35,817 nt of DNA from Reclinomonas americana ATCC 50394 (GCA_048213135.1 PS015369.1:1-35817), one strand, 5' to 3'. Counted from the first letter of the stretch, positions 1,700-35,817 are shown. Numbers and translations are program-made. The notes: generated by a model not told the origin, from the sequence alone.

Positions 1700-3511
1700 G
1701 TGACGCTGAAGAAACTTTCGTTTGAGCATGAAGCCTGTCCACAAGGTGGACCGTGGGGCTCGATGTACATTGACCAGGAGTTCTTCACGGCCATTCGAGA
1801 CATTGTGGGTCACGAAAATTTTGCGTCCGTGTGGCAACCGTCGGCAGTCGAGCTGCTGGACGACGAGCTCAGGGAGACTCTGGCGGACGCGAAGAGCCGT
1901 ATCACAAGAGATATCATCGAGTTCAAGCACGCTGTACGGTGAGTTGTCACTGCACTGATGGGTGCTCCTGCTCCGGGTCATCTGACACGAACGATGTGGG
2001 GTGTGCTCAGTGTCGACCAGCTGGCAGACGCGACGCAGCCGGTGCTGAGGATCGATCTCTCGCCCTTTTTCTTGACTGCGACTGAGTGTGCGGAGACGAT
2101 GAAAGTGAGCGACGCGGTGGAACTGGTGTCAAGGAATGTGGACAACTACAACAGATCACGTGGTGGACAACAACACGTGGTGCAGCAGTTGCGTGACTCT
2201 CATCAACACTGTGTGCAATGCTGTGTCGCTCACCGCGATGTCATCGTTGTAGGATGCGAAGAGAACGCAAGACGTTGGGGATTGGATTCACTGCTCTCGG
2301 TGCTCAAACACTATTCAACAATGTGCGTACTCCGACTCCACTACCTGTATTGCTCCACATTTCGTTCTGACTTCCTCCGCGCGCTCCGTCAGGTGATTGA
2401 CCACATTGTTCATCACGTTCGTGACCATGTGGTTGGGGCCATGAACCGCAGCGGGCATGCAACCGGACGAGTGTACGCCGTGATGGCTGGTGGATTCGGT
2501 TCATGCGAAATCTTGCAGCGCCGCTTGATGGACGAAGCATTCTCGGTTTGTGTACACTGCTGTCCCTGACTATCGTGCTGTTGTTCCAGTAGCTTACGGT
2601 ATACGGGGGTTCACAGGAGTGGATTGCGCAGACTGCAGCGTCTGCACCTGGTGGCTTGAATTTCGGTTTCGTTGTGCCTGCGGAGACGCAGCAATTGGTT
2701 TTGAAGGGCGCAGCTTCGATGGGCATCATTCATCTCTTGCACCTCAACGGAGTGCGTGCTACGGAAGTGGCGAGAACGCTATCAATTCCGCAGGTCGTCA
2801 CAAGGAGAATCAACAAGTGGTACGCCATCTCGGTTTCTCGGCCCGTCTCTGACACGTCACAGCATCTCTCCGCTGGCCAGCCGATTTACGTGCGTCATTG
2901 GCTTTCTGCACTCGGCGTGCATGTACACGTGCTAACTGTTGACTCCTTTGGCGCTGCGTAGGTCGTTGAGGACGTGAGGCGTGTTGATGTTCCGCTGCTG
3001 CTGGCGAATCGGAACGATCCATTCACCCTCAACGAAGAGAAGAGGGTCGAGGGGTTGACTGCACTTACAAGAACCCAGGTTTGTGATGCTCCAGTTTCGA
3101 GATTTTTGGCGCAACGGCAACTGTGTGCTCATGGTCATGATTACGTCGCAGACGCACGTCGCTATCAAGTTGTACAGCTTCCCAACGCGACTGGTTCGAC
3201 GTGTCAACGGTGGTGTCGAGAGCGGACTTCGACCAATGCCGCAACCAATGCGCGACGTCGAAGGGTTGGATATCCGCACCATTCCGCTCTCGGAATGGCA
3301 GTGCGAAGGAGAGATCCGAGTGCCCAACACCAACCCAGACCAACGAATCACGGTGTGTTTTTCTCGTTAAGCAATGTTTGTGTTTCCGCTGGTGACTGAC
3401 GCTGTGTGTCAGGCCGCCATCCGTTTCGGTGGAGAAGAAACGCAGCTCGTGGTGACTACCGCAGGCTTCAGAGAGCAGACCCCGTTGCGCCTCTGTGAAG
3501 TGGGCAGGTGA
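1700..3511 (+). CDS. HSPA12-type atypical Hsp70 (5' part lost in gap), about 8 visible exons
   Basis: Spliced peptide carries HSPA12-like motifs in the expected order: GGPWGSMYIDQEF, TLFNN|VIDHIVHHV, VMAGGFGSCEILQ, FVVPAETQQLVLKGAASMG, RRINKWYAI, and C-terminal IRFGGEETQLVV. Inferred intron starts at 1939, 2188, 2323, 2546, 2890, 3079, 3353; stop TGA 3509-3511. Confidence 0.75.
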
Positions 3512-3536
3512 TGACTATCTGAGCCGCCGATTGAAA

Positions 3537-4781
3537 TCACTTGTGTACTGTCATTGTCGCCAGCCAATCACGATTCAGGGGATGACATGTGCAGAAGAGC
3601 ACGTGGGGTAATATTAATCGTCTGATTGACGACCATGAGCTCAGAAGACACCATTCACTCCTCACCTCTCCCCCTGCCACGCTCGAAACAACCTCGCCGC
3701 CGCATCCTCCACCACAAAGCACCGCAACACAATCTCCGGCAAGCACCGACGCTCTCCTTCTCTGCCTCCTCCCCCCTCCCTCCTCCTCCTCCTCATCCTC
3801 CTCCTCCTCCCGCTCCTCCACCACCGCCGCCAACACCCGCGACGCCTCCACGGCCGCCGCCAATTCACGCCGCAACAACGCCACCGGCGTACCCCACAAC
3901 CGCACCGTGTAATCCCAGCTGCCACTCACCAAATGCTCACCATCCCCCGACACCGCCAACGACATGATCGCCGACTCGTGATGCGGGCCCGCCAAGCACT
4001 GCACTTTGCCATCCACGGACCACACGCGAATGGACAAGTCCTCGCTGCCGGAGACCAGGAAGCGCCCGCACGGAGTCCACGCCACCGACACCACACTGTC
4101 GGTGTGCCCCTGGAGAACGCGAGGTTCTTCATCATCGCGCAGCAATGGCCACACGCGCACTGTGCAGTCCCCACTGGCGGCCGCCACATACTCGTCATTC
4201 ACAGGCGATACGGCCACAGCACGCTCCAGATCCGTGCATCCCGCCAGAACGCGCTCCAGTCGCCCCGTCTCCAGCGACCACACCTGCACCACCATGTCTT
4301 CGCCGCCACTCACCGCGTACCTGTCGTCGCCAGTGACCGCCACGCACAACACAGCGCCCGTGTGACCTTGCAAGCAGCGCACCTCGACGCCCGCCTGCTC
4401 ATCAACAACCTCCCACACGCGCACCACCGTCTTGTCATCGCCACCGCTCACCACTTGTCGACAGTCGCTCAGAAACGCGACCGCATGCACGGCCCACGTG
4501 TGACCCACCAGCGTACACACGAGCTGCGCGGTGGCCAGTGCCCACACACGCAACTTGCCATCGTAACCTCCGCTCACCACGAATCGCCCACAGCGACTGA
4601 CCGCCACAGCCAGCACGCGACTGTGATCGGCCACTCGCAGCACCTCCTCGCCCGTGTCCACACGCGACACGCGCACAGTGGCATCGATGCTGCTGCTAAT
4701 CACAAACTGCGAGTCGGGAGTGAAGACCGCAGAGTACACCTCGCCAGTGTGGCGACGCAGGGTGCGCTCAGCAATGAACAT
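3537..4781 (-). CDS. WD40-repeat beta-propeller protein (about 7 repeats) with acidic low-complexity C-terminal tail; intronless
   Basis: Uninterrupted 414-aa ORF from ATG 4781 with repeated GH..V..V.....G..lvSG..D..vrvW units. Confidence 0.9.
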   Translation of the reverse strand: MFIAERTLRRHTGEVYSAVFTPDSQFVISSSIDATVRVSRVDTGEEVLRVADHSRVLAVAVSRCGRFVVSGGYDGKLRVWALATAQLVCTLVGHTWAVHAVAFLSDCRQVVSGGDDKTVVRVWEVVDEQAGVEVRCLQGHTGAVLCVAVTGDDRYAVSGGEDMVVQVWSLETGRLERVLAGCTDLERAVAVSPVNDEYVAAASGDCTVRVWPLLRDDEEPRVLQGHTDSVVSVAWTPCGRFLVSGSEDLSIRVWSVDGKVQCLAGPHHESAIMSLAVSGDGEHLVSGSWDYTVRLWGTPVALLRRELAAAVEASRVLAAVVEEREEEEDEEEEEGGGRRQRRRASVLAGDCVAVLCGGGCGGEVVSSVAGGEVRSEWCLLSSWSSIRRLILPHVLFCTCHPLNRDWLATMTVHK

Positions 4782-4826
4782 TATTGATCGGGACCGGACA
4801 ACCTTACACTACGCACCTTTGTTATC

Positions 4827-8334
<3,508 letters not shown>

Positions 8335-8389
8335 GCTCACCATCAAACAATGAACAGCCGATTGCTCCTTTATTGAAGAAGCCGCGTTA

Positions 8390-10993
8390 TTACACGTGCA
8401 GTTGTGTGCGCTCCTTGGTGATGTGCTGGCGATACTTGTCGAGCATGGGGTCGACCTCCTCGCGGATGAACTCCTCCACTTGCTGCGGTGCGCGGCCGAC
8501 AAAGCGGCGTGCGTCGACTACGTCATCGAGCTTGTCGCGCACCTTGGCGAACTCGGGTGCCGCCCGGATGCGATCCAGCAGGTCGTTGCCCGCTCCCTCC
8601 TCCTTCACGCGGCTGTGCAAATGCAGAGAGAGTGAGTATCTCTTCCTCTCTCTCCCTCACTCTCTCTCTCTCTCCGCACCGCGCGCTCTCCATGGACAGT
8701 CGACGAATCACTTCGTGCAGCTCCTGTCGATCGCCACCGGCTTTGACGGCGGCCATGAGAATGTTCTCCGTGGCCATGAACGGCAACTCGGCTTGCAGAT
8801 GCTTCTCGATCACGCGCGGCCACACTTGCAGTCCGTCGGCGACGTTGGCGACCGTGTTGAGGATGCCGTCGACCGCCAGGAACATCTGCGGAATGCTCAA
8901 CCGTCGGTTGGCGCTGTCGTCCAGCGTGCGCTCAAACCACTGGTTGGCGTGCGTGTGACTGGCGTTGGCGGCGAGCGTGGTGGCGAAGCGGCTGAGCGAG
9001 CAAATACGCTCGCACCGCATCGGATTGCTACAGGCGGAGCAGTGTGAGAGCTAATAAACACACAGGCCGCAACACCTGTTTCGTTTCCCGCATTCTTCTT
9101 CCTCTCTCTCTCTCTCTCTCTCATCTCTTCCCCCTCTCCATCCCTTCCCCACACACACCGCTTGTAGGGCATGGCAGAGCTGCCGATCTGGGACTTCTCG
9201 AATGGCTCCTCAATCTCCTTCATGCTCATCAACAGTCGAATGTCCACGGCCATCTTGTTGGCGCTCTCACCGATGCCGGCCAGCACGTTGAGGATCATGG
9301 TGTCGAGCTTGCGCGTGTACGTTTGACCGCTACCCAGGAAAGGTGAGAAGGTCGATGCGAGAGTGGCGAGACACTAGCCTCGCACCTCACGGGAATGCTG
9401 CGCGAAAAGTCCATCAGCTGGCACACTCGCTTGTCGAGCTCGCGCACCTTGCTGTGGTCTCCGGCAAACAGCTCAAGGAAGCTGGCTTGCGTGCCAGTGG
9501 TGCCCTGCGCCGCCGCAAATGAGACAAACAAAGGCACACTTCATTGTGCCTGCACACACACACACACACACGCCGACCTTGACGCCTCGCATGGGCATGT
9601 TCTCAATCAGGTCCAACACCGAGTGCAAATCCATCCAAAAGTCCTGCATCCACAGCGTGGAGCGCTTGCCGACCCTGTCACATATGCAGAGTGAGAGAGA
9701 GAGATGTCTCGACTCACAAGTCGCAAGGAGAGACGTGCACGCAACGTCGTCAACTGCGCCGGCTGGAAATGCGTAAAGCCGAGGGTCGGCATGTCCTTGT
9801 ACTGCAGCGCAAAGTCGCGCAGCAGCGACATGACCTTTAGCAGCTTGTCGCGGAGCATGCCCAGGCCGGAGCGCATCAAAATCAGTTCAGAATTGTCGCC
9901 CACGTAGCACGAGGTGGCGCCGAGGTGGATAATGCCCTTGGCCGACGGACTATTGTGATTCAGAGGGTGAGTGGGTGTGATGCACGCAGGTGGTGGCGAA
10001 GAAACGCAACACTTGCTCGCCGTACACGTGAATGTGAGCCATCACGTCGTGTCGCAGCTCACGCTCCTTTTGCGCCACGCGCGCAAAGTCAATCGTCTGC
10101 GTCGCCGCACGGAGGGCCTCGACTTGGGCCTGCGGCAAGAGGAGAAGAAGGGCACGATAAGGAGAGAGGCCACGGAAAGAAGGGGAAGGAGGCGGAAGGC
10201 GGCAAGTAAGAGCTGTCTGTCAGCATATCTGCTTCTCTTCTTTGCCCAGGAGGAGATCTACAAAGAGAAGCAGAAGGAAGAGGAGAGCAGCCTGCTTGCT
10301 TCTCTTTCTCTCCTTGAATGTGCAGGAAGGCAGAGAGGAGAAGGGACAAACGTGCTGCGTTGCATGCAAGTTTGCTTCTCCTGCTACCTGCCACACGTCA
10401 ACAAACGAAGAAGAGTGACAAAGAGCAGCAGAGGGAACAGGTGTATCTGCCTGCCAGACACCAACAAGAGAAGAACAGAGGAGCAGAGGGGCAGGAAAGC
10501 CACCTGCAAGCCTGCTGCCCCCCCTCTCTCTCCCTCCCCAAAGTTATTCCGGTACCCTTTCCCTCCCTTTCCCCCTCCCCCTTTACCCCCTTCACTTGCT
10601 CACCTTGGAGACACCCGGCACTCCCAACTCGCACTGCGCCTGCGCCAGCGCGACCCACAACTCACGCCACGTCGAGTAGCGCTTTTGCGGCGAGAACAGA
10701 AAGCTCATTTCGCGACTGGCATAGCGCCCCACCAGAGGGTTATCGTACACCAAGTTTTCTGTGTGAGAGAAAGTGAGTGACAAAGAGAGTACTTATGTTG
10801 GGAGACGCATGCACCTGCAGCAACACCCGGATGCGACTTCGAGAATGCACGACGAGTCACAAGCGACCTGACACACACATGCATTGTCAGTGACTCTCTT
10901 CTTCTGTGTGTGAGAGAGAGTGGACGTGACACACCACTGCGTGTGAGTGCGAGGCACCACAGAGGTGGAGCGAGACAGCGCGCGCCACAACAT
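8390..10993 (-). CDS. ADSL: Adenylosuccinate lyase with N-terminal extension (about 10 exons)
   Basis: Motifs [115 protein letters not shown]; stop TAA 8390-8392. First exons 10993-10935 and 10867-10815 splice in frame to 10758. Confidence 0.95.
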
Positions 10994-11089: not shown

Positions 11090-14000
11090 TTACTGCTTGC
11101 CGACCATGTCTGTGGCGGCCTGCTCGACCTCTGGGAAGGAGGCCAGCACGTCGGCCCATGTCCGTCGGCCGTCGCAAATGTCGGCGACTGCGCGCGCCAG
11201 GTCGTCCATGGAACCGCGCACTTGGCGGCACGAGTCGCGCTCGCGCAGTGTCACCGAGCCGTTGGCCACCGTGTCAAAGTCAATGGTCATGCCGAACGGG
11301 ATACCGAGCTCGTCGGCACGGGCGTACCGCCGACCAATGTTGGCGCTGCTGGCGTCTGCGCGGAAGGTGACGTAGTTGCGGTGCAGGGCGGTCTCTGCGG
11401 GTTGTTGTGTGAACGATGAGAAAACAAGAACGCGGAGGTACACCACGTCACAGTTGCACGCAACTGGCCTGCTCCACAAACGGCACAAAGTCCGTGTTGC
11501 CGCTCAGCGGCAGCACGGTGCACTTGTAGGGTGCGACGGCCGGGCTCAATGACAGCACCTGCATGGTGTTGGCATGAGATAAAGAAGATGGATGTAAGAG
11601 ACGGGGGTGGAGAGTGCACGCAACTCCGCGTGCCTCGTCACCCTCGCGCGTCCAGTAGGCCTGCTCCAGCAGGGCGTACAGAATGCGACCAATACCGAAT
11701 GACGGCTCAATCACATTGGGGACGTAGTTGTAGCCGCTCACACGCTTCTCCACCTCCTTGAAGGAGACCATGTCGCGGGTGATGGTGATGCTCTCTCCGG
11801 CGTCGCCAATCACGATGGTGTGTTGGCTGCGGAGAGTGGCGGGAAAGTGTAAGTCCACAGAATAGGTCACGAAGAAAGGATTCTCACAACAGGCGAAGAA
11901 ACCAAGCAGACAGACAATGACAGGCCTTCAGACGACAAAAATACTCTTTCCATCAAGCATGAATCACAGGAGATACGAGGAATAAGCACAAGGAAGAATG
12001 CCACTTGACAAAGGCAGAGTGCAAGACACAAGTCCCTCACTCCACAGCCCCCAGCACCAACCAAGAGACAAACACGCACACATTGACCACATCACATACA
12101 GAGTGCAAGAAAACACAAATCCCACTCACTCCTCACCAAGCACAATCGCAACAAAGAGACAACAAACACCACATGTTGGACGCCAACAAGACAACAAGTC
12201 CCTCGAGCACAAATCACAACAACAAACACGCACACACATCTCTCGTCTCTTCCCCATCCTTCCCCTTCCTTGTCCCTGCCACTCACCCAGCATTGTCGAG
12301 TGCCTCCTGAATGCACCGCGCCTCCGCCTCCGTGACATTCTCGAGGTACGCCTGCGCACCGCCGGCCTGCTTCTTCAGCGCGCGGCCGAGAACCTGCTTG
12401 TTGAACTGCGGCTCCCACACGCGCACGAGGCGCGGCTCGTCGTAGTCCTCGCGCGCCGTCAGCTCCACCTTGGACACGCTCTGGTGCTGCGTCAGATCGA
12501 ACGCCGAGCGATCGGCGATACCCACACACTCGACCCAGCCGTACGAGGTCTTGATCTCGGCATCCCAGCAGTCGGCGGCGTAGTGAGCTGTTGCGTGCAG
12601 ACACATGAGTTGACTCTCCCCCTCTCTCACCCACACATTCACACCAACGCACCCATCTCTGTCCGTCGGTGCTGGCGGAAGCGCAGGCAGTCGGCGCGGA
12701 TACCGACGTCCAACATGAACAGGTAGGTGCGGCCGATAAAGTAGCCGAGAGTCTCGTTGTTGATCATGCCCGACGACACGGCGCTGCCAATCGTCACCTT
12801 GATGGTCTTCTCACCGGCATCCTGCAGTGGTGCGGGCCACACGGTGATCTCCAGATCGGCGACAGTCGGGAACGACGGATGTGACTTGTCGGCCGGGTTC
12901 ACAAAGTGCTCGATCTCGGCCAGGGTGAATTCTCTGCACGCGAGATCTTCCGTCAGCAGGGATGCACGCAAGAAACACGCACATCATCAATAACAAACAC
13001 ACGTACACACTCACTCGCTCACACACAAATTCACATTCACGCTGCCACTCAGAGACACACACACACAAACTCTGACTCATTCACGCGCACACATCACACA
13101 TGCACACTGTATCAAACGCATGCACTCACTCGACTCTCACTTGTTCGCGCTCCCACTCTTTGTGCGTCAATCCCATCCTCTCTCAGTGTAAGTATCACTT
13201 ACTCACTCTTCTCCTACACTTCTCTCTCACACATGCACACTCGGGCATGTATACACACAAATACAACCTCCCTCTCTCTCATCACACTTCATCTCTCTTC
13301 GCTCACTTACCCCTTTCCTCTTCACACACACACACACACCGTGACAGACACAAACACAAACCCTCTCCTTCTGTCTGTGCATCTCTCCTTTTCTCTCTCA
13401 CTTCTCCTCATCCCTCCCTTTCCCTTATTCCTTCTCACCCACCTGACACGCAGGAGACCATTGCGCGGCGCAATCTCATTTCTGAACGCCTGACCAATGG
13501 TGGCGGCGGCAAACGGCATGCGGCCACCATTGAACTCCAACAGGCGCTTGAAGTTGACAAAGATACCCTGCGCCGTCTCTGGTCGCAGGTAGCCCTGCGA
13601 GCCGTCCACGGGGCCAATGTTGGTCCCGAACATCAGGTTGAAGGGGAAGGGGTTGGAGACCGGGTTGCCGTTGTGCGACTTGACACCGATCGTCTGCATG
13701 ATTTGGCCGAGCTCGTCCGCGTCGTAGGCGTCGGCCTGTGTGCAAAAAGAGAGGGAGAACACGTCAGATGATCAAGACCAACAAAGTCTTCTCCCCCTTT
13801 GCCACAGACACGCAACGTTGCGAATGTAGGCCTCGTATTGCAGGCGCTCCTCGGCCGTGATCTCCACACTGGCCAGCTTCTGGTGGCAAAACTCCTCCAG
13901 CAGCTTGTCGGCACGCAGGCACTCGTTGGTGACCGTGTCGCGCACCATGAAATCGTTGAAGCGATCGACGTGGCCCGAGGTCTTGAGCACCACCGCCGGT

Positions 14001-15349: not shown

Positions 15350-17641
15350 ATGGAGCCGGCGACGGCCTCGCCCTCACACAAGCGCATTTTCGACCACTAC
15401 TTCAAGGGCATTCCCGTGATCCGTGCCGCCATTGAGCAGCAACCACCCTCGGCCACACAACAACACCAACAACGCACAGTGATCACACGCAGTGGACGCG
15501 CAGGCCGCATTCGCCAGGCCTTGCATGTGCGCGCCACCGCCGAAGTCATTGCCTCCGCCGTGCAGCGCAAGTTGAAGCACGTCGTGTCCTCGGCAGTCGC
15601 CGCGCAGCAAGATGCTGATGATGATGATGAGCAGCAGCAGCAAGGAGGGGAACGAGTCATTGCGCGTCGGCGATTGTCTCCATTGTCACCGGCGACTGCG
15701 GGTGTGAAGCAGTTCGACTCGACCGAGCTACGCAATGACTATCTGGAGTCGTTAACGCGTCGGTACGAGGACTCGGCGGCGCTGCAGGCGTCGAATGTGC
15801 GAGCGCTGGAGAGTCGCGTGGAAGAGCTGGAGCGTGTGGTGGCGGTGTCGCAGCGCGAGGCAGCGGTGTCGCGCAAGGAGGCGCTGGTGGCGCAGGAGGT
15901 GGCGAGGGAGTTGCAGATGCGCGTGGAGTTGAGTCAAGAAGGGGGAAAGGGAAGGGATGAGAGAGGGGAAGAGAGAGAGTGCAGGGTTCGGGTGCTGCTG
16001 CTTGTTGACAAGGACGCGCTGTTGGTGTCTGAGAGGAAGAAGAGGGACGCAGAGTTCGAGTGCTTGCTTCTTTGCGTGCTGTCTGTGTGCGAAAGAGAGA
16101 GAGAGAGAGAGAGTATGCAGGGTTTGAGTGCTGCTTCTTGACAAGGACGTGCTGTCGGTGTATGACAGGAAGAGGGGACGCAGAGTTCGAGAGCTTACTT
16201 CTTGTCGAGGACGTGCTTGTGTTGCTGTAGGGAAGAAGGCTGAGGTTGATCGCTGGTACATACCGCGCTGTTGGNNNNNNNNNNNNNNNNNNNNNNNNNN
16301 NNNNNNNNNNNNNNNNNNNNNNNNNNNNNNNNNNNNNNNNNNNNNNNNNNNNNNNNNNNNNNNNNNNNNNNNNNNNNNNNNNNNNNNNNNNNNNNNNNNN
16401 NNNNNNNNNNNNNNNNNNNNNNNNNNNNNNNNNNNNNNNNNNNNNNNNNNNNNNNNNNNNNNNNNNNNNNNNNNNNNNNNNNNNNNNNNNNNNNNNNNNN
16501 NNNNNNNNNNNNNCCTTTGCTCTCTCTTCTCTTCGTCCTCTCTTCTATTTCCTCTCTCTCTCTCCCTTTCCCTCCTTCATTTCTCTCTCTCTCTCTCTCT
16601 TCTATCTCCTTCCCTCCTCTCCCACCCTTCTTTCTCTCTCTCGTTTCTCCTGCATTTGTTCTCTCCCGTCCCCTCACTTCTCTCGTCTCCGTTTCGTCTC
16701 TCTCCTTCTTTTCCCCCTCTCTTCCCCTTCTCCCGTCATCCCCTTCATTCCCTCTCCCTGTCCCTCTCGCTTTCCCCCCTTCTCCCTCTCACTCTCCCCC
16801 TTCTGCGCACAGCGACGCGGAGGCACGACGAGTGGCGGCGGATCAGGAGAGAGTGGCGGCGGTGGCGGAGCTGGCGAGCGTGCAGGCGCAACTTCGCGGC
16901 GAGTTGGAGCGACACGAGGGCATGAATGCGGTGGTGCGTATTCCAGGCTGCTGTAGGCCAACATCTCCATGTTTTCTGATCCATCATGCCCCGACAGGAG
17001 GAACACCGACAGAGATTAGTGGCGGAACAGGAGGCCGCCGAGCTTCGTGACCAGCTGCACAGATTGCAGACGCAGTACGACGCCGATCCGCAGCGAGATT
17101 TGCACGATCGGATGGTCGACGTGACGCGAGACTTGGCTCGGACCACCACCGATCGCGACGTGTTGCGAGAACGGTTGCGGTACATGAAGGATCGGCTTGA
17201 GTTGCTGCAGACGGAGAGAGATCAGGCGGTGGCTGCAGCGGCTGGTAACTCGTCTGGCGGCCCCGGCAGCGGTCAGCGAATCGAGGAGTTGCAGGCGGCA
17301 CTCGCCACGTCTGAGTCACAGGTATGTGTCGCACATCGTCCCTTTCCCCCCATATTGCCTATGTCGCTCACTGTGTCGCTGCGCAGCGCCACATCCTCGA
17401 GGAGCGCGTCAGCCATTTGTCGCTGTCGGCAGAAAAGTATTTGTTGGTGCTCGACCAGCTGCGCGACGCGGAAGAACGCCTGCTGCTGGCCAACCGCGAG
17501 ATGAGACACTGGAAGACGGTGGCCTTCAACAACGGTGCTGCACCGGAGCCATTCTTGCCCGCCCGAACCACCACTGCGGCGGCCAGTGCCACTGCCGCAG
17601 CAGACGTTGGAGACGGAGCAACAACAACAACAACAATATGA
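15350..17641 (+). CDS. Hypothetical coiled-coil protein (at least 4 exons; one intron contains a gap)
   Basis: ATG 15350 (MEPATASP); heptad-rich segments (NVRALESRVEELERVV, LRDQLHRLQTQY, RIEELQAAL). Exons about 15350-15927, 16813-16933, 16998-17321, 17387-17641 are phase compatible. Confidence 0.65.
15992..16215 (+). repeat. Imperfect intronic direct repeat, 2 copies of about 80 bp
   Basis: GTGCTGCT..TTGACAAGGACG.GCTGT.GGTGT.TGA.AGGAAGA...GGACGCAGAGTTCGAG.GCTT at about 15992 and 16128. Confidence 0.75.
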
Positions 17642-20700: not shown

Positions 20701-22489
20701 GCCGTGCCCCATTTGCAAATCAGTGCATGTATGTCAATCACTAGTACACGCGTGCCCACATACGCACCACTGGGCGAGCCCATCTCCGACAGCTCCCTCA
20801 ACTCTGTGGCGAGTTTGTGCACCTGATCCTCGGCATCGGCAAGGCGCCGATCCAGCGTTTCCCGCTTGGCCGCATCGGGGGCACCCGAGAGCAGCTTGAG
20901 CGATTCGGCCAGCTGTCGCTTCTTGCTCTCCGCTGCCGCCAGCATCACAAAGGCGTGTCCGTACTGCTGTACAACTTGCAGGAGGCGCTCCTCACGCTCC
21001 ACCAACGCATCATCCACGCCGTCCATGCCCATCTTGTCCTCCAAATGCGACAGCGAAGTTCGCAAGCGAGCCAGTTGCCGACCGATTTCCTGCTCTCGCT
21101 GCGTCAACAAATCCAGTTCGGCAATGGCGGCAATGGTGGCGTGTCGGCTGTTGCGTTCCTGCTCGGCAAACTGCTGTGCGAGGCTCTGCAGGCTGCGATC
21201 GAGCCACTCGTTGCGTTTTGTCAGCGCCTCCAGCAGCCAGTTGCGCTCGTCGCCCACCACCTGCAACGAGGTGAGCAAACGGAACGATGCATACACACAC
21301 ACATCACTGTGCCCACGCAACTCGAATCGACTCCTTGAATTCGGTAAACTCGCGGCTCAATGAATCCTCCAACGCCCTCTCCTCGATGGTATGATGCCGC
21401 GACGACAGATCCATGCTGTGCACCAACTCGGACAGCTCCACGTGACTGTCGCGAATCTCACCCAGCTGGCGCGACATTTCCACCAGCGCCTCCTGCAGCA
21501 CCGCGTACACGCGCAGTCACGCAAACGATCATCACAACGGTCGTAGGCACACACACACACACACAAACCTGCATGTGCTGCCACAGATCGCGATCCTTGG
21601 AGAGCGCAAACCGCCGCTCCAGCGCCGCCGGCGACAACATCTCATGCGCCACACGCGCATTCTGCTCCATGGTGGCCAGCAAGTGTCGATTGATGCTGCT
21701 GAGTAATCGCGTACGCTCATTCAAGCGCCACGTCCCTCCCTGCAGCCCCGCCACCACTTTTCTCTCCTGCGCCAGCTGCTCTCGCAACTTCTCCTGCTCA
21801 TCGTCCAGGTGCTCATACAGCGTCACGCCGGCACCAGGAGAGTTGACGGGCGAGCCTTGTGTCGACGCCGAGCGACGAGGCGACAGAGGCAGACTGGCAC
21901 CGCTGCCGCTGCTGCTGCCACTGGAAAGCACCTGCTCATGTGGAAGGTGAATGAGAGAGAGAGAGAGAGAGAGAGAGCAGGCGGTGAGAGTCGCATACAC
22001 GCACCTTGCTATACACGCTCTCCACAAACGCGGCCTCGTCAGCCAGCTGCAACAGACGATCGAGGAAGCTCTGAAGACAGAGAGACAACTCCTCGAGTGA
22101 GCACGACGCACTGAGTGTGTGAGAGACAGTTTGCGGAAAGACCTCGAGCTCTGCAGCACGCGTGGCATCCAGAATGCGCAGACGATCAACCTCCTCTCGC
22201 GCAGCCTGCAAAACAAACATGAGCTGATGCAATCACTCACACACACACGCGACTGACTGACCGTGATTCCGCGTTCCAGTCGCAGAGACACTGTCTCGGC
22301 CTTGACTGCGCGATCCATCAACACGCGTTCATCTCTCTGTGTGAGATGAAAAGTGTGAGATGAAAGTGCGTCAGAGTGGACATGTCGCGTGTATTCCTTT
22401 GTGCGCACAGGCTCAGCGCGAATGGCCTCCTCCACTTGACCCTCCAGTGGACCTGCCACTTGCAGCAGATCGCCCAAGCGTCTTCTCAT
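17748..22489 (-). CDS. Large multidomain protein: N-terminal coiled coil + TerD-like domain + C-terminal Dilute (DIL)-like domain (about 16 exons)
   Basis: Continuous phase-consistent splicing from ATG 22489 (alternative ATG 22555) to the stop at 17748. TerD-like: MVQWRGSENVDLSCVVFN...ITLKLDELPQEAEHFVFVSHSVTG..MSAVKSLTLCIMD. DIL-like: IQAELFNELLRK...VANLQLCVNIYCQW...VMQCAELL...IKQQCKFLTRRQLFGLL. Confidence 0.6.
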
Positions 22490-22655: not shown

Positions 22656-24079
22656 CTATTCGTCAAAGGTGCCGGTGGCGGCCAGGATGGTGAACACCAG
22701 TGCAATGGTCATGTACCCGGAAGCCATGGCGACGAACCTGCACGTGTTGCAGATGAGTGGAGATGGGAGGGGAAAGCACCGGTGAGGTGCACGCAACTTC
22801 CATCCGCGATGCTTGCTCGTGCCGCTAAAGGAATCGGAAATCTCCTGCAAGCCAAACGATGTATGAGATCGCGCTGGTGGTGCTCCTCTCGACACACACT
22901 CACCGCAGCGCCGACGTAGATAAAGGCACCAGAGGCCAACGCCAGCAGCACGCCCTGCGTGGAGTCGCCCGAGAACGACGAGATGCCGAGGCCGACGGCC
23001 ACACCGATCGGTGTCATCAGCGCAAACACGGTGAGGAGGAAGAAGTAGGGGCCGCGGGAGATGCCACTGCCGATCCACTTGATGCCGACAGCGAATGAGT
23101 CGAATGGCTGTCATCGTCGCGGCCACGAGTGAGCGCCAGGCAGAAAGGGAGAGAGAGTGAGAAGATCGGAGCGCATCACCTTGTGCGACACAATGGCCAC
23201 GAAAATGGCCATCAACGAGCTCCACGAGTGCGACGTGCCAAACGCCAGCCCCGCGATCACCGAATGCAGTGACAGCGCCGCCATGGTCATCAGCGCCGAC
23301 ATCGGGCTGTCCTTGCCATCGTTCGCATCGTCGTCGTCGTCTTCGTCACTGCTCTGTGCCTTCTGATGCGCCCGTGCCACAGCATTCACCGGTCCATGCT
23401 CCGGATCCCGCGTTGGTGTCACACCCACTCGCACCGCGCCACTCGCCGTGATCGTGTCTGCGCCAGAGGTCTGCCCATTGATCAGCGGACTCGACTCGTC
23501 AGCACGCGCTGCGGCCTTTGGTGGCTCTCCATGATCCGGATGCGCAATGATCACGCGGTCGATGCAGAAGCTAGAATGCCAATGAGCAGCAGCCTGAGTG
23601 AGCAGCAGACTGACTGCGTGTACAACGCAACAAAATGTAGAACGCGAGACCGCACAAGAACTGCGCGAGCGGGAAGTTGCCGAGAGAGTTCGCCGAGAGT
23701 GGTGCCAGCAGCTCCACAGCATCCGGGTACACATCCATCAAGCCTACGTGGTAGTACGAAGTACGAGCGGAACAACAACAAGCATAAGAAGGAGAGAGAA
23801 TGACTCCACGCGTCTCCCTGTGTGTGGCTCACCAATGGCCAAGATGACACCTGCAGAGAAGCAAAAGCCAATGACCAGTCGATGATGCGCGTGTGCCATG
23901 GAGCGAATGATCCAGGGGGCGACTCCCGCCAGAAAGGCCTCGACAAAGAAGAGAAACAGGAAGCCGATCTTCCAGTTGCGCAAACAGGAGCCCTGACAAT
24001 CGTCGCCCGCAGAGGCAGCGGACACAGAGCTAATCATCGACATGAGCATGAGCACGAGCACGAGCAATGGTCTGCTCAT
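22656..24079 (-). CDS. ZIP-family (Zrt/Irt-like, SLC39) zinc/iron transporter (about 6 exons)
   Basis: Signal peptide plus TM segments; motifs CFSAGVILAIGLMDVYPDA, ALSLHSVIAGLAFG, AIVSHK, FALMTPIGVAVG, LALASGAFIYV; stop TAG at 22656. Confidence 0.9.
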
Positions 24080-24148: not shown

Positions 24149-25682
24149 ATGAGTGAGGAGGCTGTGCCTGTGCCACGTGTTGTGGCGGTTAAGGGACCGT
24201 TAGAGTTCCCTGTGCGTGAGGACGATGGGTTGGTGTATGAGACGTATCGAGGAGAGGAGGAGGACTTGCCGGCGATCAAGGCACTGATGGAGCCGAACTT
24301 GTCAGAGCCGTACTCAGTGAGTGAGAGAGAGAGAGAGAGACACGCACTGTAAAAGCAGGTCTGACTCTCATTCTGTGCTGCCCTAGGTGTTCACGTACAG
24401 GTTCTTCTTGAATCAGTGGGCCAACTTGGCATTCATTGTTGCGCGCCTCAGTCTCAGTGTGCGTGAGAGTTGCTGGTTTTTTTTGTTGATGGTGAGGTAC
24501 TAGGTGCGTGACTCGACGTTGGGCATGGAGCCGGTGGGAGCGATTGTGTGCAAGTTGGATTACAAGCGGGATCGACTGCGCGGGTACATTGCCATGTTGG
24601 CGGTCAAGGCGAGTTCTTCTTCTTCTTCTTCTTCTGTTGTTGGTGTTGTTGAGCAGCTGCATTGGGAGATAGGAATGGATCCTCTGCTCTTCCGTGTCTG
24701 CTGTCTGAGGAGGCATGGAGCAGAGGACTTGCGTCACATCTGCTTCTCGATCGGTCATGTTGTCTTGTGGCTCTCTGTTCCCCCTCCTGTTCCATCTTTT
24801 TGATGCTGCACCCGTCTTGTTGGTCCTCGGTCTTTCCTCTCTTCTCTGAGCAGGCACAGAGCAGAGGACTCGCATCGCACAAGCTTCCCGATCATACATG
24901 TTGTCACTCGGCACCCAGTTTCTCGCTGTTTAGCCTCCTGTGCCTTGGGTTGCCCCTGTACCCATGCATCTTCAATCCCTCGTGTGTCGTCTCTTCTCTG
25001 AGCAGGCACAGAGCTGAGGAGTTGAGTCACAAAAGCTTCTCGATCTTGCATGTTGTCTTGTGGCTCTCTGTTCTCTCGCCTTCTCTCCTTTCTGCGTCGT
25101 TCTTGCTACTTCAATCATCTATGTGGTCCTCGGTCTTTCCTCTCGTCTCTGAGCAGGCACAGAACTGAGGACTTACGTCACAAATGCTTCCCCATCTTGC
25201 ATGTTGTCATTCGGCCTCGGTTCGCCCTCCTCCTCTGCCTCCGTCTCCTGTACCGTCCTGTTGTGCTGCACCCATCCCTCCTTGGTCCTCGGCCCTGCCT
25301 CCTGTTACCTCTGGGCATTAGCAGAGCAGGAGAATCAGCAGCTGTCCCTCCCTCTGCCCTCTTCTTTCTGCACCTTCTGTTTCCTCTGCCCCTTCTCCCT
25401 CTTACCTCCCTTCTCCTTCCCCCCTCCTCCGTCCACCCTTCCCCCCTTCTCCTCCCCTCGCAGGACTCGCACCGAAAACGCGGCATCGGCACCGCGCTGG
25501 CCAAGCGCGCCATCGGTCGCATGGTGCAGAACGGTGCCGACGAGGTGGTATTGGAGACCGAGGTCGGCAATCGCGGCGCACTCGCCCTCTACGACGCACT
25601 CGGCTTTGTGCGACACAAGCGCCTCAGCAAGTACTACTTGTCGGGCACCGACGCCTTCCGCCTAAAGCTGTGGTTCACGTGA
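24149..25682 (+). CDS. NAA30: N-alpha-acetyltransferase 30 (NatC catalytic subunit, MAK3)
   Basis: Exons 24149-24316, 24387-24437, 24504-24608, 25464-25682 give LSEPYSVFTYRFFL, GAIVCK, RGYIAMLAV, RKRGIG, DEVVLETE..N..AL.LY..LGF.R.KRL..YYL.G.DAFRLKL. Confidence 0.95.
24705..25215 (+). repeat. Degenerate intronic tandem array, 4 units with period about 141-152 bp, in A-B-A-B order
   Basis: CTGAGCAGGCACAGAGC.GAGGAC...TCACA...GCTTC.CGATC..CATGTTGTC with GAGGA anchors at 24723, 24864, 25016, 25167. Confidence 0.88.
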
Positions 25683-25845: not shown

Positions 25846-27180
25846 ATGTCTGGGGAGAGTCCGTCTCCGCCCACCTCACCCGCCCATGCAGCCATTCGTC
25901 GCAAAGCGGCTCTGCGCCAGGTCATCATGGAGACCATGAACACAGAGTTCGTCTTTCTCTCCTCTCTTCTCCCCCCTCTGACCAGCAAGTAACGTCTTGT
26001 TTGTTTTTGTGTGCACACAGGCCACACTATCGCGATGAGGACTCTCTGCCACTGGTGGTGGAGTTTCTGCGACAGAACTCGTTCTTTGAGCGGTTCGACG
26101 ACGAGGCGATGTGGGGATTGGCACGTGAGTCGATCTTGCGCACAGTGGAGGGTGGTGCGACAGGTGAGTCAGTCAGTCAGTCATTAACGACCTGCCTTCC
26201 TGGTGTGTAAGTCGTTCTTTGGGCGCGCGCAGTCATGTCAACGATCGGCGAGTCCGACTTCCTCTACGTGATCATGCGAGGCGCAGTGTGCGTGCAGACC
26301 AAGGACAATCGCGGTTTCGATCGTGTGCTGTCGCTGCTGGAGCAGGGCGACTCGTTTGGCGATGTGACGAGCTTGAGGACGTTGCCTCCGTTGCGTATAC
26401 CTCTCTGCTCTTCTCCGCCTGACTCACTCGCGGGAGGCAACTGATCGCGACAACAGCAACTGCCACGTGATTCCGGTGCAAGAGACCGACTTGGTGCTGC
26501 TGGGTCGGCACACGGTGCAGCGGTATGTCACGGCGGTCCTTGAGGAGGAGACGGAGCGGCGAGCCGAGTTCCTGCGGCGGTTGGTGGTGCCGGTGTTGCG
26601 GACGTGCCCGGTGGATACGGTGTACCAGGTGGCGCGGGCGATGCATTCGCGATATGTGCGAGCCAACAAGGGTGCGTGCGCAGCCTTGTCCATCCTTTGC
26701 TCCTTTATTCCACCAGCACTCATCGCCTTCCCCCCCGCGGTTGCAGTGCTGGTGCACCAGGGCGAAGAGGGCGATGTGCTCTTCTTCATAGTCTCCGGCG
26801 AGTGTCGCGTGATCATGGAGGTCGATATCCCGTCACGACCCGGCGTGCTGGAGGGTCCCGACGATCGGCCCACCAACAAGCACTTTTTGGAGACGGCGTC
26901 GCTGGTGGCGGGCGAGTATTTTGGCGAGTTGTCGGTGCTGCGGCAGGTGCCACGGGCGGCGACGGTGGTCACCAACACGCCCGTGCGCCTGTATTGCTTG
27001 GCGCGTGTGGATTTCTTCAACTTGCTTCGCGACAGCGTCGTCGAGGACTTCAATCGGTACGCGGAGACGTACCCCACGCGTCAGCAGATCATCGATGCGT
27101 ACTTGGAGATTCAGAGTTGGAACGAGAAGAAGCGCAGTGTGGTGCTCGGTGCGCTGGAGAAGCTCGTGCATGAGAGATGA
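25846..27180 (+). CDS. Protein with two cyclic-nucleotide-binding (cNMP) domains (CNBD-like; 5 exons)
   Basis: Domain 1: IGESDFLYVIMRGAVCV...LEQGDSFGDV. Domain 2: HQGEEGDVLFFIVSGEC...GEYFGELSVLRQVPRAATVV. Introns start at 25947, 26164, 26390 and about 26672; stop TGA at 27180. Confidence 0.82.
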
Positions 27181-27365
27181 GTAAAAAACAAGCTCGTCAC
27201 GCCATCTGGCAAAAAGAGAGGAGTGCGGCAGCGCCGGGGTCAATTTGGAAGTTCGATGAAGGCGCTTGCCATGTGCCTCTCTCGGCCAAGAAAGAGTGTT
27301 GCCGGAGAGTCTATTTCTGTCCATTTCCGATCGATTACGACGACTTGTGGGTCAACAGTATTTTT

Positions 27366-30300: not shown

Positions 30301-33300
30301 CGCCTTCTTACCACGCTGCTTCTTGCGCGGTCGAGCACCTGAAGCGAGCGACTGCACATGCACCTCGTCGTCGTCGTCATCACCGTCATCGCCCACAGCG
30401 TGATCGCCGTCATGCTCGCCTCTTCCGCTCGCGTCCGCAAGACTGTCAGTCGACGAGACGCGCACCAGTGTAGCCACAGCGGCCTCGGCTACGTGTGACG
30501 ACTCGGGCTTTTCGACAGGTGGCGGCGGTGGTGTCGTCTTGCTGGCGACTGGTGGTTTGCTCGGAGGCTGTCGAGTTGCGGCTGCTGGTTTCTCTGCCTC
30601 TGCTTCCGCCTTGCTGGCCTCCACAGTGTCACTCTGCCCACCATCGCTCGGTGCCGTGGCGCCACCGACGAGATCAGTGGCGGCGGGACTGCGTTGGCGG
30701 GACGGGCGACGGCCGCCCGACTTGCCGGACCGGCCACCACCGCCGCCGCTTGCCGCCGTCGCTGTCGCTGCTGCTGCTGCCGCCGCCTTGGCTTCTGCTA
30801 GTTGCCGCTGCAGGCTCTCCACCTCGCTCTCCAGCGTGCTCACACGGCGCTGCAGTTGCACCTTTTCTTCCTTCTCCCCTCGGTTTTCGGTGCTGGCACG
30901 CAGCGGAATCGCGGCCACAATCGTTGTCTCGCCACCCTCGTCGCTCTGCTCATCGTCGCCAGACTCGCCGGCCGAAACTGTGGATGATGTCGGCGACACT
31001 GCGCATAGAGAGATGAGAAAAAACACGCACAAAACCGGTAACATTGACAACAGAACTTGACATTCGTGAGTCGCTTCTCCGATGGCCGTGACCTCGGCGA
31101 GCCGAGTCGACGTCGCTGTGGGAGCCGTCCAACTCACTGCCTTGGCCTTTGCGAGTGCGGCCGATGATTCGCTTCACCGCAGCTGACTCGTCGCCGTCGC
31201 GCAAGTACGAGTCACGGGTTTGGATTGATCTGGTTTTTGCTCGGTTTTCAGCAAGTGATTTCACAGCAGCAGACCATGGCAACCACCGCACCTCTCGTAG
31301 TAGTTGACAATCTCGGTCTGTGAGTTGCCGTCGGCGGACGTAACTGCGCGCAAACATCGAAAAATGGTTGAGAAGGAGTCATGCCACCCACACTCTCCCC
31401 AACAACGCACAGGTGGCCTGCACTTCAGCAGCACACAGCAGTGGACGCGGTAGCATAGAGCGCTTGATTACGGGCAGCATTCTGAACAGCTGGATGTTGA
31501 TGTCTTCCAGGATCAGCGAGGCGTCGAAGCGGCCGTCGGACTGCCAGCAAAGAAACGACAAGAGTGTGAGTTGAATTGAAGGAGTCATGCACTCGCCCCA
31601 GCACCACGCAACAGCCACCACGAATCCCTGGCGTGTGAAGCGTTCCATGCTGGCGGTGGATCCCGGCGCAAAGTGTTCACGCAGCTCCAGCAGCGCCGAT
31701 TCCACGTCCTGTGCACCAACAACCGCCGAGATCAGGAATCAACATTCTCGACTGGCATGTTTCTCACAGGACGAAACGTAGATCATGCCGACAGTCTCCA
31801 CCAGCACAGGCTTCAGCTCCGTATAATCCACCAGCCGACGACGGCGTTGGCGTCCACCAGCTCGACGAGTCCGCGAGGCAATCTGTCTGTCGATTGTCTC
31901 CTGATCTTCCTCATCCTCCGAGTCGGTGGACAACTGGCCCAAATCGTCCTCACCACCTGCTGTTGGGCTGCTCATAAAGTCCAGGTGGCCCTCGAACATC
32001 TGCAGTCGATGCCGCAGCTCGTAGATCTGTGCATCGCGCTTCTCAATCTCCTCTCGTTGCGTGCCGATTTCGGTGTCTGGCGCGACGAGAGTGTGAGCAG
32101 CAAGTGTGCGATGACTGCAACGGAAAAACACACACGCAACGAAGTTTCGCCATCTCCTCGTGGAACTGATCCCAGTCGGTCTTCAGCTTGCCTGCCAACT
32201 CCTCAATCCTGTCGTGCAGCTGCTTGTTGTTCCTCAGCAGTACCCTGCACGCGAGTGAAGCCGAAAAGTTAGGAACCTCCACACCTGTTCATGCTTCGCT
32301 GCTTCCACCAACCAGTGACGAGCGTTTTCACCCTGCAGCCTCTCCTCCAGCTGCTTGATGGTGTCCTCCAGCGCTCCGGTCTTCTGCAGCTGCTCCTGCA
32401 ACGCTTGCTCACGCCTCCGTACCTCGATGGTGAACACCTGTCGCAGCTGCTCGAACGCGGTGGTCACACGCGTCCACATGCTCAACAAATTGCGGCGGCA
32501 GATATCCAACAGCACGCCACGCTCCATCATGTGCGTGCCCACCTGTGTTGTCATGCATCAGACGCAGCCTCGACACTTCGACACTGTGTGCGAGACTTGC
32601 AGTCGTTCACGCACCTGTCGCACGAGCTCCACCATGACCGTATTCCACACACTCAGCTCTCGCCGCAGGAAGCGATCAAACGTGTCGCTTGCGTGCTCGT
32701 CGCTGTCGCTCGAGTCCACCAGCCCGTGGTGTGCGCCGTCGAGCCGGTTCACAGAGCGCTGCTGCTCCGACAGCATCTCATCGAGGGTGCGGGCCAGCAG
32801 CAACACCTCGACACGCCCCGTCGGCTGTTCCGACGGGAAAATGCGTTTCTTCCACAGCTTCATGTGCTCGTCGAACACGGACTGCACCAGTGTGAGATCG
32901 GGAGGGACGGAGGGCGCACAGAGACAGACAGAGGCATCTTGCGCTCACCGCCTTGTCGCCGGAGCCGTGCACACCCTGCGACAGTGGCGCCGTCGAGTAC
33001 ACGTGAAACTCGACGGGAATCACCGAGTCCGGCATGTGGACGTGACTGGCGGTGATCTCGCGCATGGTGCGCGACTCGTAGTTGCTGCCAAAGAACTGCG
33101 TCAACACGTCCCGGTAGTTGATGAACTCGGAGTCGGGTCGCACGGTCGGTTGCTGCGCGACGAGTGAGTTGGTGGAGAGGTCAGCAGTCGAGCAAGCGCG
33201 CGCAACTCCCGTGTCTAGCAAGTGCGACACATCGCTCAGTGCCGACTCCAGGCGCACTAGATCGGCGTCGGACATGTACGACGTCAGCGCTTCCCTGGCC

Positions 33301-33909: not shown

Positions 33910-34632
33910 CTGTGCCATTGCGCGCAGAGTGAGAGGCTATAGTTACAAGAATGGCGAGAGACTNNNNNNNNNNNNNNNNNNNNNNNNNNNNNNNNNNNNN
34001 NNNNNNNNNNNNNNNNNNNNNNNNNNNNNNNNNNNNNNNNNNNNNNNNNNNNNNNNNNNNNNNNNNNNNNNNNNNNNNNNNNNNNNNNNNNNNNNNNNNN
34101 NNNNNNNNNNNNNNNNNNNNNNNNNNNNNNNNNNNNNNNNNNNNNNNNNNNNNNNNNNNNNNNNNNNNNNNNNNNNNNNNNNNNNNNNNNNNNNNNNNNN
34201 NNNNNNNNNNNNNNNNNNNNNNNNNNNNNNNNNNNNNNNNNNNNNNNNNNNNNNNNNNNNNNNNNNNNNNNNNNNNNNNNNNNNNNNNNNNNNNNNNNNN
34301 NNNNNNNNNNNNNNNNNNNNNNNNNNNNNNNNNNNNNNNNNNNNNNNNNNNNNNNNNNNNNNNNNNNNNNNNNNNNNNNNNNNNNNNNNNNNNNNNNNNN
34401 NNNNNNNNNNNNNNNNNNNNNNNNNNNNNNNNNNNNNNNNNNNNNNNNNNNNNNNNNNNNNNNNNNNNNNNNNNNNNNNNNNNNNNNNNNNNNNNNNNNN
34501 NNNNNNNNNNNNNNNNNNNNNNNNNNNNNNNNNNNNNNNNNNNNNNNNNNNNNNNNNNNNNNNNNNNNNNNNNNNNNNNNNNNNNNNNNNNNNNNNNNNN
34601 NNNNNNNNNNNNNNNNNNNNNNNNNNNNNNNT

Positions 34633-35817
34633 GACGCGGGATCGTCGTTCCAGCGCGCCGTCAAGGACCTCCTCACCAAGGTCAAGGACGTGCGCAGTCA
34701 GCAGGACGAGGTCAAGAAACGATTGGAGGCGGTGTCGTCGCAGTCGCCCGCTGCCAATGGTGGGGGAGCAGCTGCGTCGCCCGCCGCAGCCATGGCGTCG
34801 CTGTCGACAGTGGCCACGGTAAGAGACGAGCGAGCGAGCGCGCAGCACCACGCTGGCTTTACTTCCGCCGCAACTCACTCCCTCCCTCCCGTCTTGCACA
34901 GTCTGCCAACTCGTATCTCAACCCGACGGTGCCAGTGGAGCTCCTGTCGCGACCGATGGGTCGCGCAGCAGCACATGCCATTGCGGCGCTCTTTACGCCG
35001 CTGTCGGAGGACGAACGGCGGGGGCGATCGCGGCAGGGTGTGGCAGTGAATGGCAAGTCGCGCTCGTCGAGCACCAATGGTGGTGTCAGCACGCGGGGCG
35101 GAATGCGACGGTTATCGGCTTCACCGTCGGCAGTGGCCTCGGACGACGTGTACGAAGACGAGGGCGAGTTGGACGAGGCGGCGGAGGAGGAGGCGGAGCG
35201 GGAGTGGCGAAGGAGGAGGCGACTGCTCATGCAGCTCGCGCACCAGCAACCACTGCAGCAGCAGCAGCAGCAGCAGCAGCAAGGCACACCATCCACCAGA
35301 TCTCCGTCGCGATCGCCATCGCCGCGGAAACCGCGGCACAGAAAGTTGTGTCCTTTTCTCCTTTTTAGCTTTGCTTTCGACGGCACCGTGACTCACTCAC
35401 TGCTGGGGAATCAGAGAGGAGCTGCAGCTGGCCAAGACGGTGACCGACCTGGACAATGAGATGAACAAGTTCCGCCAGCTCGCCCGCAACCTCGCGCCCG
35501 TGACGCCGGGCGTGCCGCTAGCAGCGACACTGGCCTCCGGCACCAACATCCTCTCCATGACACCACCGGTCGTGACAAGTCCGCCCGGTGGACGTGGTGG
35601 TGGTGGTTCATTACCGGTTTTGGGTCGGTCGCCAACTGGAGCGTTGCGCTTCGCGGCAGGATCGCCGCCATCGCACGGCTCAATGGGGACGCGCTCCTCT
35701 TCCTACTCGCTCTCCATGTCGCCGGTGCGCGGGGCTGGTGGTGCAGGGTCGCCGAATTCTGGTGGTGCACCACGCCTGCGCGACCTCATGACACGCCTCA
35801 ATGGCGGTGGTCGAGCA
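34633..35817 (+). CDS. Partial hypothetical low-complexity/coiled-coil protein (5' in gap, 3' off window)
   Basis: Exons about 34633-34817 (donor GTAAG), 34901-35344 and 35415-end join in frame: ...VKDLLTKVKDVRSQQDEVKKRLE...polyQ...KEELQLAKTVTDLDNEMNKFRQL. Confidence 0.55.

Follow-up and report, generated by a model that had tools for sequence, protein, structure and literature searches.

In well-studied eukaryotes, the position at which U1 small nuclear RNA (snRNA) pairs with the 5' splice site and the position at which the intron is cut coincide. To our knowledge, the two are uncoupled only at rare human sites and in engineered constructs. The present analysis concerns a stretch of 35,817 bases of Reclinomonas americana ATCC 50394 DNA (GCA_048213135.1 PS015369.1:1-35817, hereafter the window), in which a set of introns begins with GTTGCGT(G) rather than with the GTGCGTG of the main donor class. 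Human 5' splice sites recognized in a shifted register were described by Roca and Krainer in 2009, as reported in Tan et al. 2016 (PMC4856993), whose counts place all validated human noncanonical registers together at 3119 of 201,541 5' splice sites (1.5%). Table 3 of the same paper, which cites Roca et al. 2012, gives bulge predictions for 68 sites at +2/+3 and for 51 sites at +3 among the 201,541. Closer in sequence to the main class of the window are the introns of Ostreococcus lucimarinus outside chromosome 2, which carry atypical, strong GTGCGTG donors (Irimia and Roy 2008, PMC2483917).

The variant donors of the window share with the mammalian shifted-register sites, as these are described in the sections of Tan et al. 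drawn on here, a GU start, downstream bases that lie one step off the U1 5' end, and a G+1 that stands in the place of G-1. In both cases G is absent from exon position -1; cleavage is still at the GU in the mammalian sites and is predicted to be so here, where the likeness is drawn from composition. Unlike the human sites, which are rare exceptions built on AAGU, the variant donors account for 17 of 56 predicted introns and carry a near-invariant GTTGCGTG on a GCGU core. The human +2/+3 and +3 bulge registers likewise place one extra nucleotide between the GU and the U1-complementary stretch, but they hold exon position -1 opposite U1 C9, whereas here G is absent from that position (0/17 to 0/18). 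The main donor class resembles that of O. lucimarinus in its consensus, G|GTGCGTG, and in the strong branch motif close to the acceptor. In contrast, the branch motif there is ACTGAC and the passages on these introns in PMC2483917 mention no GTTGCG class, whereas the window combines CTCAC with such a class. Like GC-AG introns, the variant is a minority donor class that relies on strong matches at the other donor positions; unlike them, its donors start with GT, and with the boundary at GTT|GC the profile scores drop by 3.4-6.1 bits. At the level of search results, no description of a GTTGCG-type donor class was found in the literature.

GTTGCGT(G) is very probably a genuine second class of GT-AG 5' splice sites in this genome, and an abundant one. 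An earlier note, made by a model from the sequence of the window, had listed 18 donors of the form GTTG[C/A/T]G and had claimed that exonic G never precedes them. All 18 hexamers were found at the coordinates and on the strands given there, and exon position -1 is indeed A in 8, C in 7, T in 3 and G in none. Because T prevails at +7 (16/18) and G at +8 (11/18), the real motif is GTTGCGT(G). On both strands together there are 50 copies of GTTGCG, where base composition predicts 21.3, and 20 copies of GTTGCGT, where it predicts 4.4; fourteen of these 20 are assigned as donors, and four of the six non-donor copies lie on the + strand, antisense to - strand genes of the gene map. The regions 35-115 nt upstream of 177 loosely defined branch and acceptor modules contain TTGCGT 18 times (6.2 expected) and GTTGCG 21 times (9.7 expected), which rank among the most enriched hexamers there, both above GTGCGT (16 versus 8.0). 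This enrichment is independent of reading-frame arguments. It bears on the suspicion that the sites are not introns at all, or that GTTGCG is a chance or compositional motif. Such an artefact would draw on the fact that a home-made predictor is the basis for 13 of the 18 sites, but it is scarcely credible given that GlyRS and ADSL cannot be read unless these segments are removed, that the motif is enriched upstream of the modules whatever the reading frame, and that GTTGCGT exceeds its expected count as described. A single GTTGCGTGT at 4547-4554 (-) lies on the sense strand within the uninterrupted frame of a WD40 protein and has no downstream branch and acceptor module; the motif alone evidently makes no intron.

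The 20 introns assembled here, 18 from the earlier list and two found later, are otherwise ordinary in their signals. All 20 start with GT and end with CAG or TAG (the intron at 2188 has TAG at 2252), and 18 of them have a CTNAY motif 11-37 nt upstream of the acceptor, the exceptions being the introns at 18314 and 24438. Their donors read GTTG[CAT]G and do not match the U12-type donor [AG]TATCCTT. Removal of the intron is needed to restore a conserved protein at five sites, all in GlyRS and ADSL.

The class was separated statistically with a gene finder based on dynamic programming, which combines codon log-odds, any GT as donor and a branch and AG module. The donor-blind pass chose seven of the 18 listed sites exactly. 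A two-component expectation-maximization mixture, run from random starts on the donor-blind donors, resolved gaG|GTGtGTggc (58%) and gcc|GTTGCGTGc (42%), and the donor classes after clustering are G|GTGcGTG and |GTTGCGTG. A self-training run with too weak an intron penalty diverged to >300 introns and was discarded, and a stronger penalty was used. The self-trained gene finder returned the homology-verified GlyRS model without deviation, found 15 of the 18 listed sites and added two further donors, at 33206 (-) and 31612 (-). Circularity on the exon bases was avoided by refitting the donor model on positions +1 to +9 only, and predicted genes with <300 nt of coding sequence were dropped, which left 56 of the 57 predicted introns.

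With the exon bases thus outside the donor model, GTTG[ACT]G donors make up 17 of the 56 introns (30%), and G precedes none of these 17 in comparison with 28 of the 39 other donors (Fisher p = 4.4e-7). The earlier note had put the share at roughly one in five; the class is abundant, as it said, but its share of the predicted introns is ~30%. The total number of introns is underestimated, because the gene finder models + strand genes poorly. GTTGCG occurs in 14 of the 56 introns against 1.54 expected from independent position frequencies. The variant is also the more rigid of the two classes, with C at +5 in 14/17 donors compared with C at the corresponding +4 in 12/24 GTGNG donors. This stronger preference for C indicates that the variant is not simply any main-class donor plus a T. 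The lengths (54-81 nt in 16/17) and 3' signals of the variant introns are like those of other introns.

The uniform 5' end and the uniform lengths of these introns might be taken to indicate recent gain through a mobile element of the introner type, whose end would carry GTTGCGTG. However, the intron interiors show no greater resemblance within the class than across classes; local alignment scores average 8.1 for variant pairs, 7.6 for pairs of other introns and 7.9 for mixed pairs, with a maximum of 13. Since the interiors are unrelated, the variant introns do not form a mobile intron family, and this origin is most unlikely.

Boundaries were examined by homology in GlyRS and ADSL, for which profile hidden Markov models were built. 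Of 120 listed homologues for each enzyme, the GlyRS profile used 103, with lengths of 590-760, and the ADSL profile 88, with lengths of 455-540. The spliced models with GTTGCG donors align end to end, with 933 bits for GlyRS and 816 bits for ADSL, and there is no gap relative to the profiles at any of the five GTTGCG junctions, two 12-residue conserved blocks included. Every frame-open GT/GC...AG pair within 60 nt of each boundary was enumerated, and the GTTGCG donor ranks first at all five sites. In GlyRS, intron 1 at 13736..13816 (-), with donor aac|GTTGCGTGT, is the best of 24 candidates; intron 5 at 11559..11624 (-), gga|GTTGCGTGC, is the best of 21, and its junction, RG|VLSL, lies gap-free in a conserved block; and intron 6 at 11395..11464 (-), cca|GTTGCGTGC, without an in-phase GT or GC alternative within 30 nt, is the best of 31. 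In ADSL, intron 2 at 9950..10010 (-), agt|GTTGCGTTT with a TAG acceptor, is the best of 14 candidates, and intron 3 at 9675..9745 (-), gac|GTTGCGTGC, a phase 2 intron at LTT|VGKR, is the best of 28 and leaves no gap in the profile.

These rankings bear on the possibility that the boundaries are misplaced, such that the introns would start three bases later, as GC-AG introns (GTT|GCGTG), or at the second GT (GTTGC|GTG) together with a displaced acceptor. A GC lies in phase at +3 at every GTTGCG site, and the window does contain a GC-AG intron. This is the apparent 855-nt intron of NAA30 at 24609-25463 (+), AAG|GCGAGT...CGCAG|GAC, the exon ends of which align gap-free to residues 80/81 of human Naa30 (7mx2_A), the nearest in-phase GT deleting two residues. 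Nevertheless, misplacement is very doubtful. The GTT|GC boundary, which adds one valine, is the runner-up at four sites, where it scores lower by 3.4 bits (13816), 4.8 bits (11624), 5.7 bits (10010) and 6.1 bits (9745); at 11464 second place goes to a GT five bases downstream (GTTGC|GT), 5.3 bits lower, and solutions with the downstream GT in general fall short by 5.3 bits or more. A displacement of the donor alone by 3 nt is penalized by 3.4-8.6 bits. Because the five introns fall in phases 0, 0, 1, 2 and 2, the constant GTT is not a codon effect, and an invariant exonic GTT in all three phases would lack a coding explanation. In addition, the single supported GC donor follows the main-class pattern, with G at -1.

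The earlier note had described the boundaries as well constrained, citing three junctions. This description stands for ADSL LTT|VGKR and GlyRS RG|VLSL, which are top-scoring, with the exact base supplied by the GT-AG rule, but not for NAA30 FI|VRD. The flanks of the candidate NAA30 intron at 24438..24503 (+), with donor att|GTTGCGCGC, align to human Naa30 (7mx2_A) up to residue ~47-48 and again from residue 50, and the loop between the exon ends varies in length among solved Naa30 chains. As this loop is variable and a GTGCGTG lies in phase 21 nt downstream, the junction is poorly constrained; the site is treated as ambiguous and has no CTNAY motif. In ADSL intron 4, at 9571-9577 (-), the profile favours the donor aag|GTCGGCGTG at 9577 by 7.4 bits over GTGTGTGTG six bases downstream, which places the GCGTG core further from the GT than usual.

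Alignment of the two classes on their cores sets xG|GTGCGTG of the main class against x|GTTGCGTG of the variant. A main-class matrix was derived from 31 donors, with eight donors that have T at +3 or read GTCGCG set aside. Under this matrix, positions +3 to +10 of the variant score -147.1 log2 likelihood units when shifted by one base versus -435.3 unshifted, and exon positions -1 to -4 score -132.6 shifted versus -169.6 unshifted, 37 bits better. Base usage at variant position -1 (A 8, C 6, T 3, G 0) resembles that at main-class position -2 (A 15, C 13, T 5, G 6) and is unlike that at main-class position -1 (G 28/39). Across all 56 donors, G at -1 accompanies G at +5 in 24 of 30 cases and G at +6 without G at +5 in 3 of 24 (p = 1.3e-6). 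Of the donors with T at +3, 24 in number, only GTTTGG, GTTTTG, GTTGGT and GTTTGT have G at -1 (4/4), and none of the other 20 does; G is at +5 in GTTTGG, GTTGGT and GTTTGT and at +6 in GTTTTG. The exclusion of G at -1 and the shifted-register composition, like the existence and frequency of the class, are thus properties observed in the window. They suggest a pattern in which intron G+1 occupies the slot of exon G-1.

The 20 donors with T at +3 and a base other than G at -1 include GTTTCGT at 16691 (+) and 31777 (-) and GTTGCCT at 26381 (+), while GTCGCGTG at 33451 (-), which also follows a non-G base, has C at +3 and lies outside the 24. The GTTTCGT, GTCGCGTG and GTTGCCT donors look like looser members of the shifted class (GTNNCGT).

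Judged by composition in this one window, the best-supported reading would be a routine one-base register shift, and we lean towards the combination of a real class with such a shift on the same U1 snRNA. The variant shares the (U)GCGU(G) core with main-class G|GUGCGU(G), its GU lying one nucleotide further upstream of the core, and the same U1 would pair with the core identically in both classes. At variant sites intron G+1 would take the place of exon G-1 opposite U1 C9, U+2 would be a tolerated mismatch, and U6, U5 and Prp8 would still cut before the sole available GU. An exonic G at -1 would go unused because that slot would now correspond to position -2, and the variant motif would be more rigid because the remaining bases must make up for the mismatch. 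The U1 pairing and the choice of cleavage site are what we infer from the composition. As for the register shift raised by the earlier note, its statistical signature, intron G+1 in the exon G-1 slot, is present, but the signature leaves the use of the same U1 in a shifted register and the use of a variant snRNA unseparated.

A bulged register would account for the extra T differently. U1 would pair with G+1 and U+2 as usual, one U of +2/+3 would bulge, and the helix would resume on GCGU. Such registers have been validated experimentally for rare human sites, with 68 predicted +2/+3 sites in the tables of Tan et al. 2016 (PMC4856993), and the G+1:C8 and U+2:A7 pairs would be kept. However, a bulge leaves exon position -1 opposite U1 C9 and should keep a G there, which disfavours a simple bulged T. 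With C9 free for the exon base, G would be favoured, as in 28 of the 39 main-class donors, or would occur at its background frequency, but it is found in 0/17 predicted and 0/18 listed donors; the probability of 0/18 is 0.002 at 29% G. A bulged register is therefore improbable.

Alternatively, two U1 snRNA variants, or a U1 with a non-textbook 5' end, would serve the two classes, one pairing with GGUGCGU and the other pairing perfectly with GUUGCGU; this is unlikely, though worth keeping in view. The second U1 would differ at the nucleotide opposite U+2, and the variant class would then be, as we tentatively suppose at best, a parallel recognition channel and not the mismatched use of one U1. 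A motif that is nearly invariant over 8 nt in ~30% of introns is what a dedicated complementary guide would give, and the predicted binding of a human-type U1 5' end to the variant motif is very weak. Unidentified snRNA changes were also raised as a possibility for the GTGCGTG donors of Ostreococcus by Irimia and Roy, in the part of PMC2483917 that deals with these donors. In contrast, tighter conservation at the free positions (C at +5 in 14/17 versus 12/24) suits compensation for a mismatch, which would be needless with a perfect guide. In its general form, that two 5' splice-site channels run in parallel, the standard G|GUGCGU and a GUUGCGU channel with its own U1 variant or a remodelled U1/U6 interface, the proposal is likewise unlikely.

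Several observations weigh against the one-base shift on a shared U1, or limit the evidence for it. The shift model predicts ~15% G at -1, for which the probability of 0/18 is 0.05, a marginal value; and among GTTGCG hexamers G at -1 occurs in 0/17 donors and 5/33 non-donors, which hardly differ. Nearest-neighbour duplex predictions were made with the human U1 5' end given in Table 2 of PMC4856993. Main-class donors pair with it with a mean of -6.6 kcal/mol and in the canonical register in 24/32 cases, whereas the variant donors reach a mean of only -1.7 kcal/mol, with no consistent register. In the duplexes of the 17 variant donors, which involve the U1 of human and not that of the host, the downstream offset is +1 in 8/17 and the G+1:C9 pair forms in 3/17. 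The preferred C at +5 would mismatch position 5 of canonical U1. As a human-type U1 would bind the variant poorly, the 5' end of the host U1 would have to differ, for example by pairing with the favoured C, or proteins would carry much of the recognition; for this reason a variant snRNA stays under consideration. When both intron ends are slid in concert by up to 3 nt, the score moves by <1 bit at four of the five homology-tested sites. Because this joint sliding is nearly free of cost, homology fixes the intron length and neighbourhood, and the exact base comes from the GT-AG rule. Furthermore, 13 of the 18 listed sites rest on crude self-trained gene models, the sites at 24438, 26390 and 35345 are ambiguous, the acceptor for 15928 is uncertain, and the evidence comes from one 36-kb window.

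If the register shift on a shared U1 is true, the cut in about one intron in three of this genome lies one base further upstream of the U1-type core than usual, and the genome would in effect be a large-scale experiment of nature. Such a genome would inform the selection of the cleavage site once U1 has given way to U6 and U5, the tolerance of mismatches at 5' splice sites and the co-evolution of snRNAs with splice-site classes. If instead the two-channel reading is true, about one third of introns need a guide RNA known from no other eukaryote. Gene predictors trained on only one donor matrix would wrongly place or overlook about one third of the exon boundaries in this genome.

The remaining sites lie outside the two enzymes. 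Four listed donors are carried by an orphan multi-exon gene at 17877-20303 (-), which has no Pfam family and whose largest exon, 19591-19959 (123 aa), has no homologues among 1.84 billion representatives. The intron at 18043..18104 (-), with donor acc|GTTGCGTCG, CTCAC and CAG, is found by the gene-finder models in this gene without homologues, and its retention leads to a stop after 37 nt. The gene finder also supports the introns at 18237..18314 (-), acc|GTTGCGCCT, with no CTNAY in the usual range; at 18555..18611 (-), aca|GTTGAGTGG; and at 19149..19213 (-), ttc|GTTGCGTGT. The first and last of these three have no in-phase GT within 30 nt. A further GTTGCGTGT at 18978 (-) falls within the intron predicted at 19005-18930; it is in phase with the GTGGAGG donor selected for that intron, 27 nt upstream, with no stop between the two, and may be the real donor of a 49-nt intron.

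In the coiled-coil genes, the intron at 21261..21321 (-), cga|GTTGCGTGG, is already picked by the donor-blind pass, and its retention leads to a stop after 15 nt; that at 32077..32140 (-), ttc|GTTGCGTGT, is found by the gene finder, with an in-phase GTGTTTT as an alternative at +9. The ZIP transporter gene contains introns at 22738..22797 (-), gaa|GTTGCGTGC, from the gene finder, and at 23571..23631 (-), ttt|GTTGCGTTG, from the donor-blind pass and the later gene-finder models. A homologue search with the ZIP transporter at E <= 1e-5 returned nothing, and Pfam coordinates did not resolve either of its two junctions. The two members beyond the listed 18, both from the gene finder, are at 33153..33206 (-), gga|GTTGCGCGC, and 31541..31612 (-), gct|GTTGCGTGG.

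On the + strand, the 65-nt intron at 2188..2252, identified from the sequence, has the donor gca|GTTGCGTGA, a CTCAC branch-like motif and a TAG acceptor, and was missed by the gene finder because its + strand gene is poorly modelled. The candidate intron at 15928..16230 (+), gga|GTTGAGTCA, has an uncertain acceptor, since this 303-nt intron ends beside the N run at 16275-16513. Two other sites are ambiguous: the candidate intron of the cNMP-binding gene at 26390..26456 (+), tcc|GTTGCGTAT, competes with GTTGCCT at 26381, and the intron at 35345..35414 (+), aaa|GTTGTGTCC, competes with an in-phase GTGTCCT at +3.

The window is eukaryotic nuclear DNA with 55% G+C and five N runs. It is gene-dense, with ~13 genes, of which those for a WD40 protein, an asparaginase-like protein, ADSL, GlyRS, a ZIP transporter, NAA30 and a cNMP-binding protein could be named, in addition to coiled-coil and orphan genes. 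The genome is intron-rich, GlyRS and ADSL having 6-7 introns, and most introns are 50-90 nt long, with a CTCAC-type branch motif followed by CAG. The best matches in protein databases reach 54% identity for GlyRS and 72% for ADSL, and no near relative is present there. ADSL (8393-10756, -) is nearest to proteins of Naegleria, Willaertia, Balamuthia, oomycetes and several bacterial groups, Victivallales and Lentisphaeria among them, with full-length identities of 62-72%. The WD40 protein matched only generic WD40 clusters of the protein atlas. A metagenome scan with GlyRS exon 1 returned one locus, which is intronless and without GTTGCG and hence uninformative; its identity is 56% in the best matched segment and 49% over full-length GlyRS.

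Comparison of the 35,817 bases with Rfam at gathering thresholds gave no matches, to snRNAs or to any other family. Relaxing the cut-off to E <= 1 brought up 16 sub-threshold matches, 15 to microRNA-precursor families and one to a bacterial small RNA, again with no snRNA among them. Fourteen of the 16 fall on one long hairpin at 5243-5397 (+), formed by a stretch of purines and the pyrimidines that follow it (-82.6 kcal/mol, z = -5.7); the hairpin lies within an intron predicted for the asparaginase-like gene. As these matches are sub-threshold and spread over many unrelated microRNA families, the hairpin is probably low-complexity sequence.

Branch-like motifs on both strands number 148 for CTCAC, 53 for CTGAC, 18 for CTTAC and eight for CTAAC. 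The base preceding the branch A in CTCAC would mismatch the GUAGUA box of textbook U2. Long G/T-rich introns with GT and GA/GGA repeats, 460-509 nt in length, occur at 12934-13442, 11827-12286 and 10130-10603 (-). They sit in GlyRS and ADSL among introns of 55-80 nt, and all three have main-class donors with G at -1.

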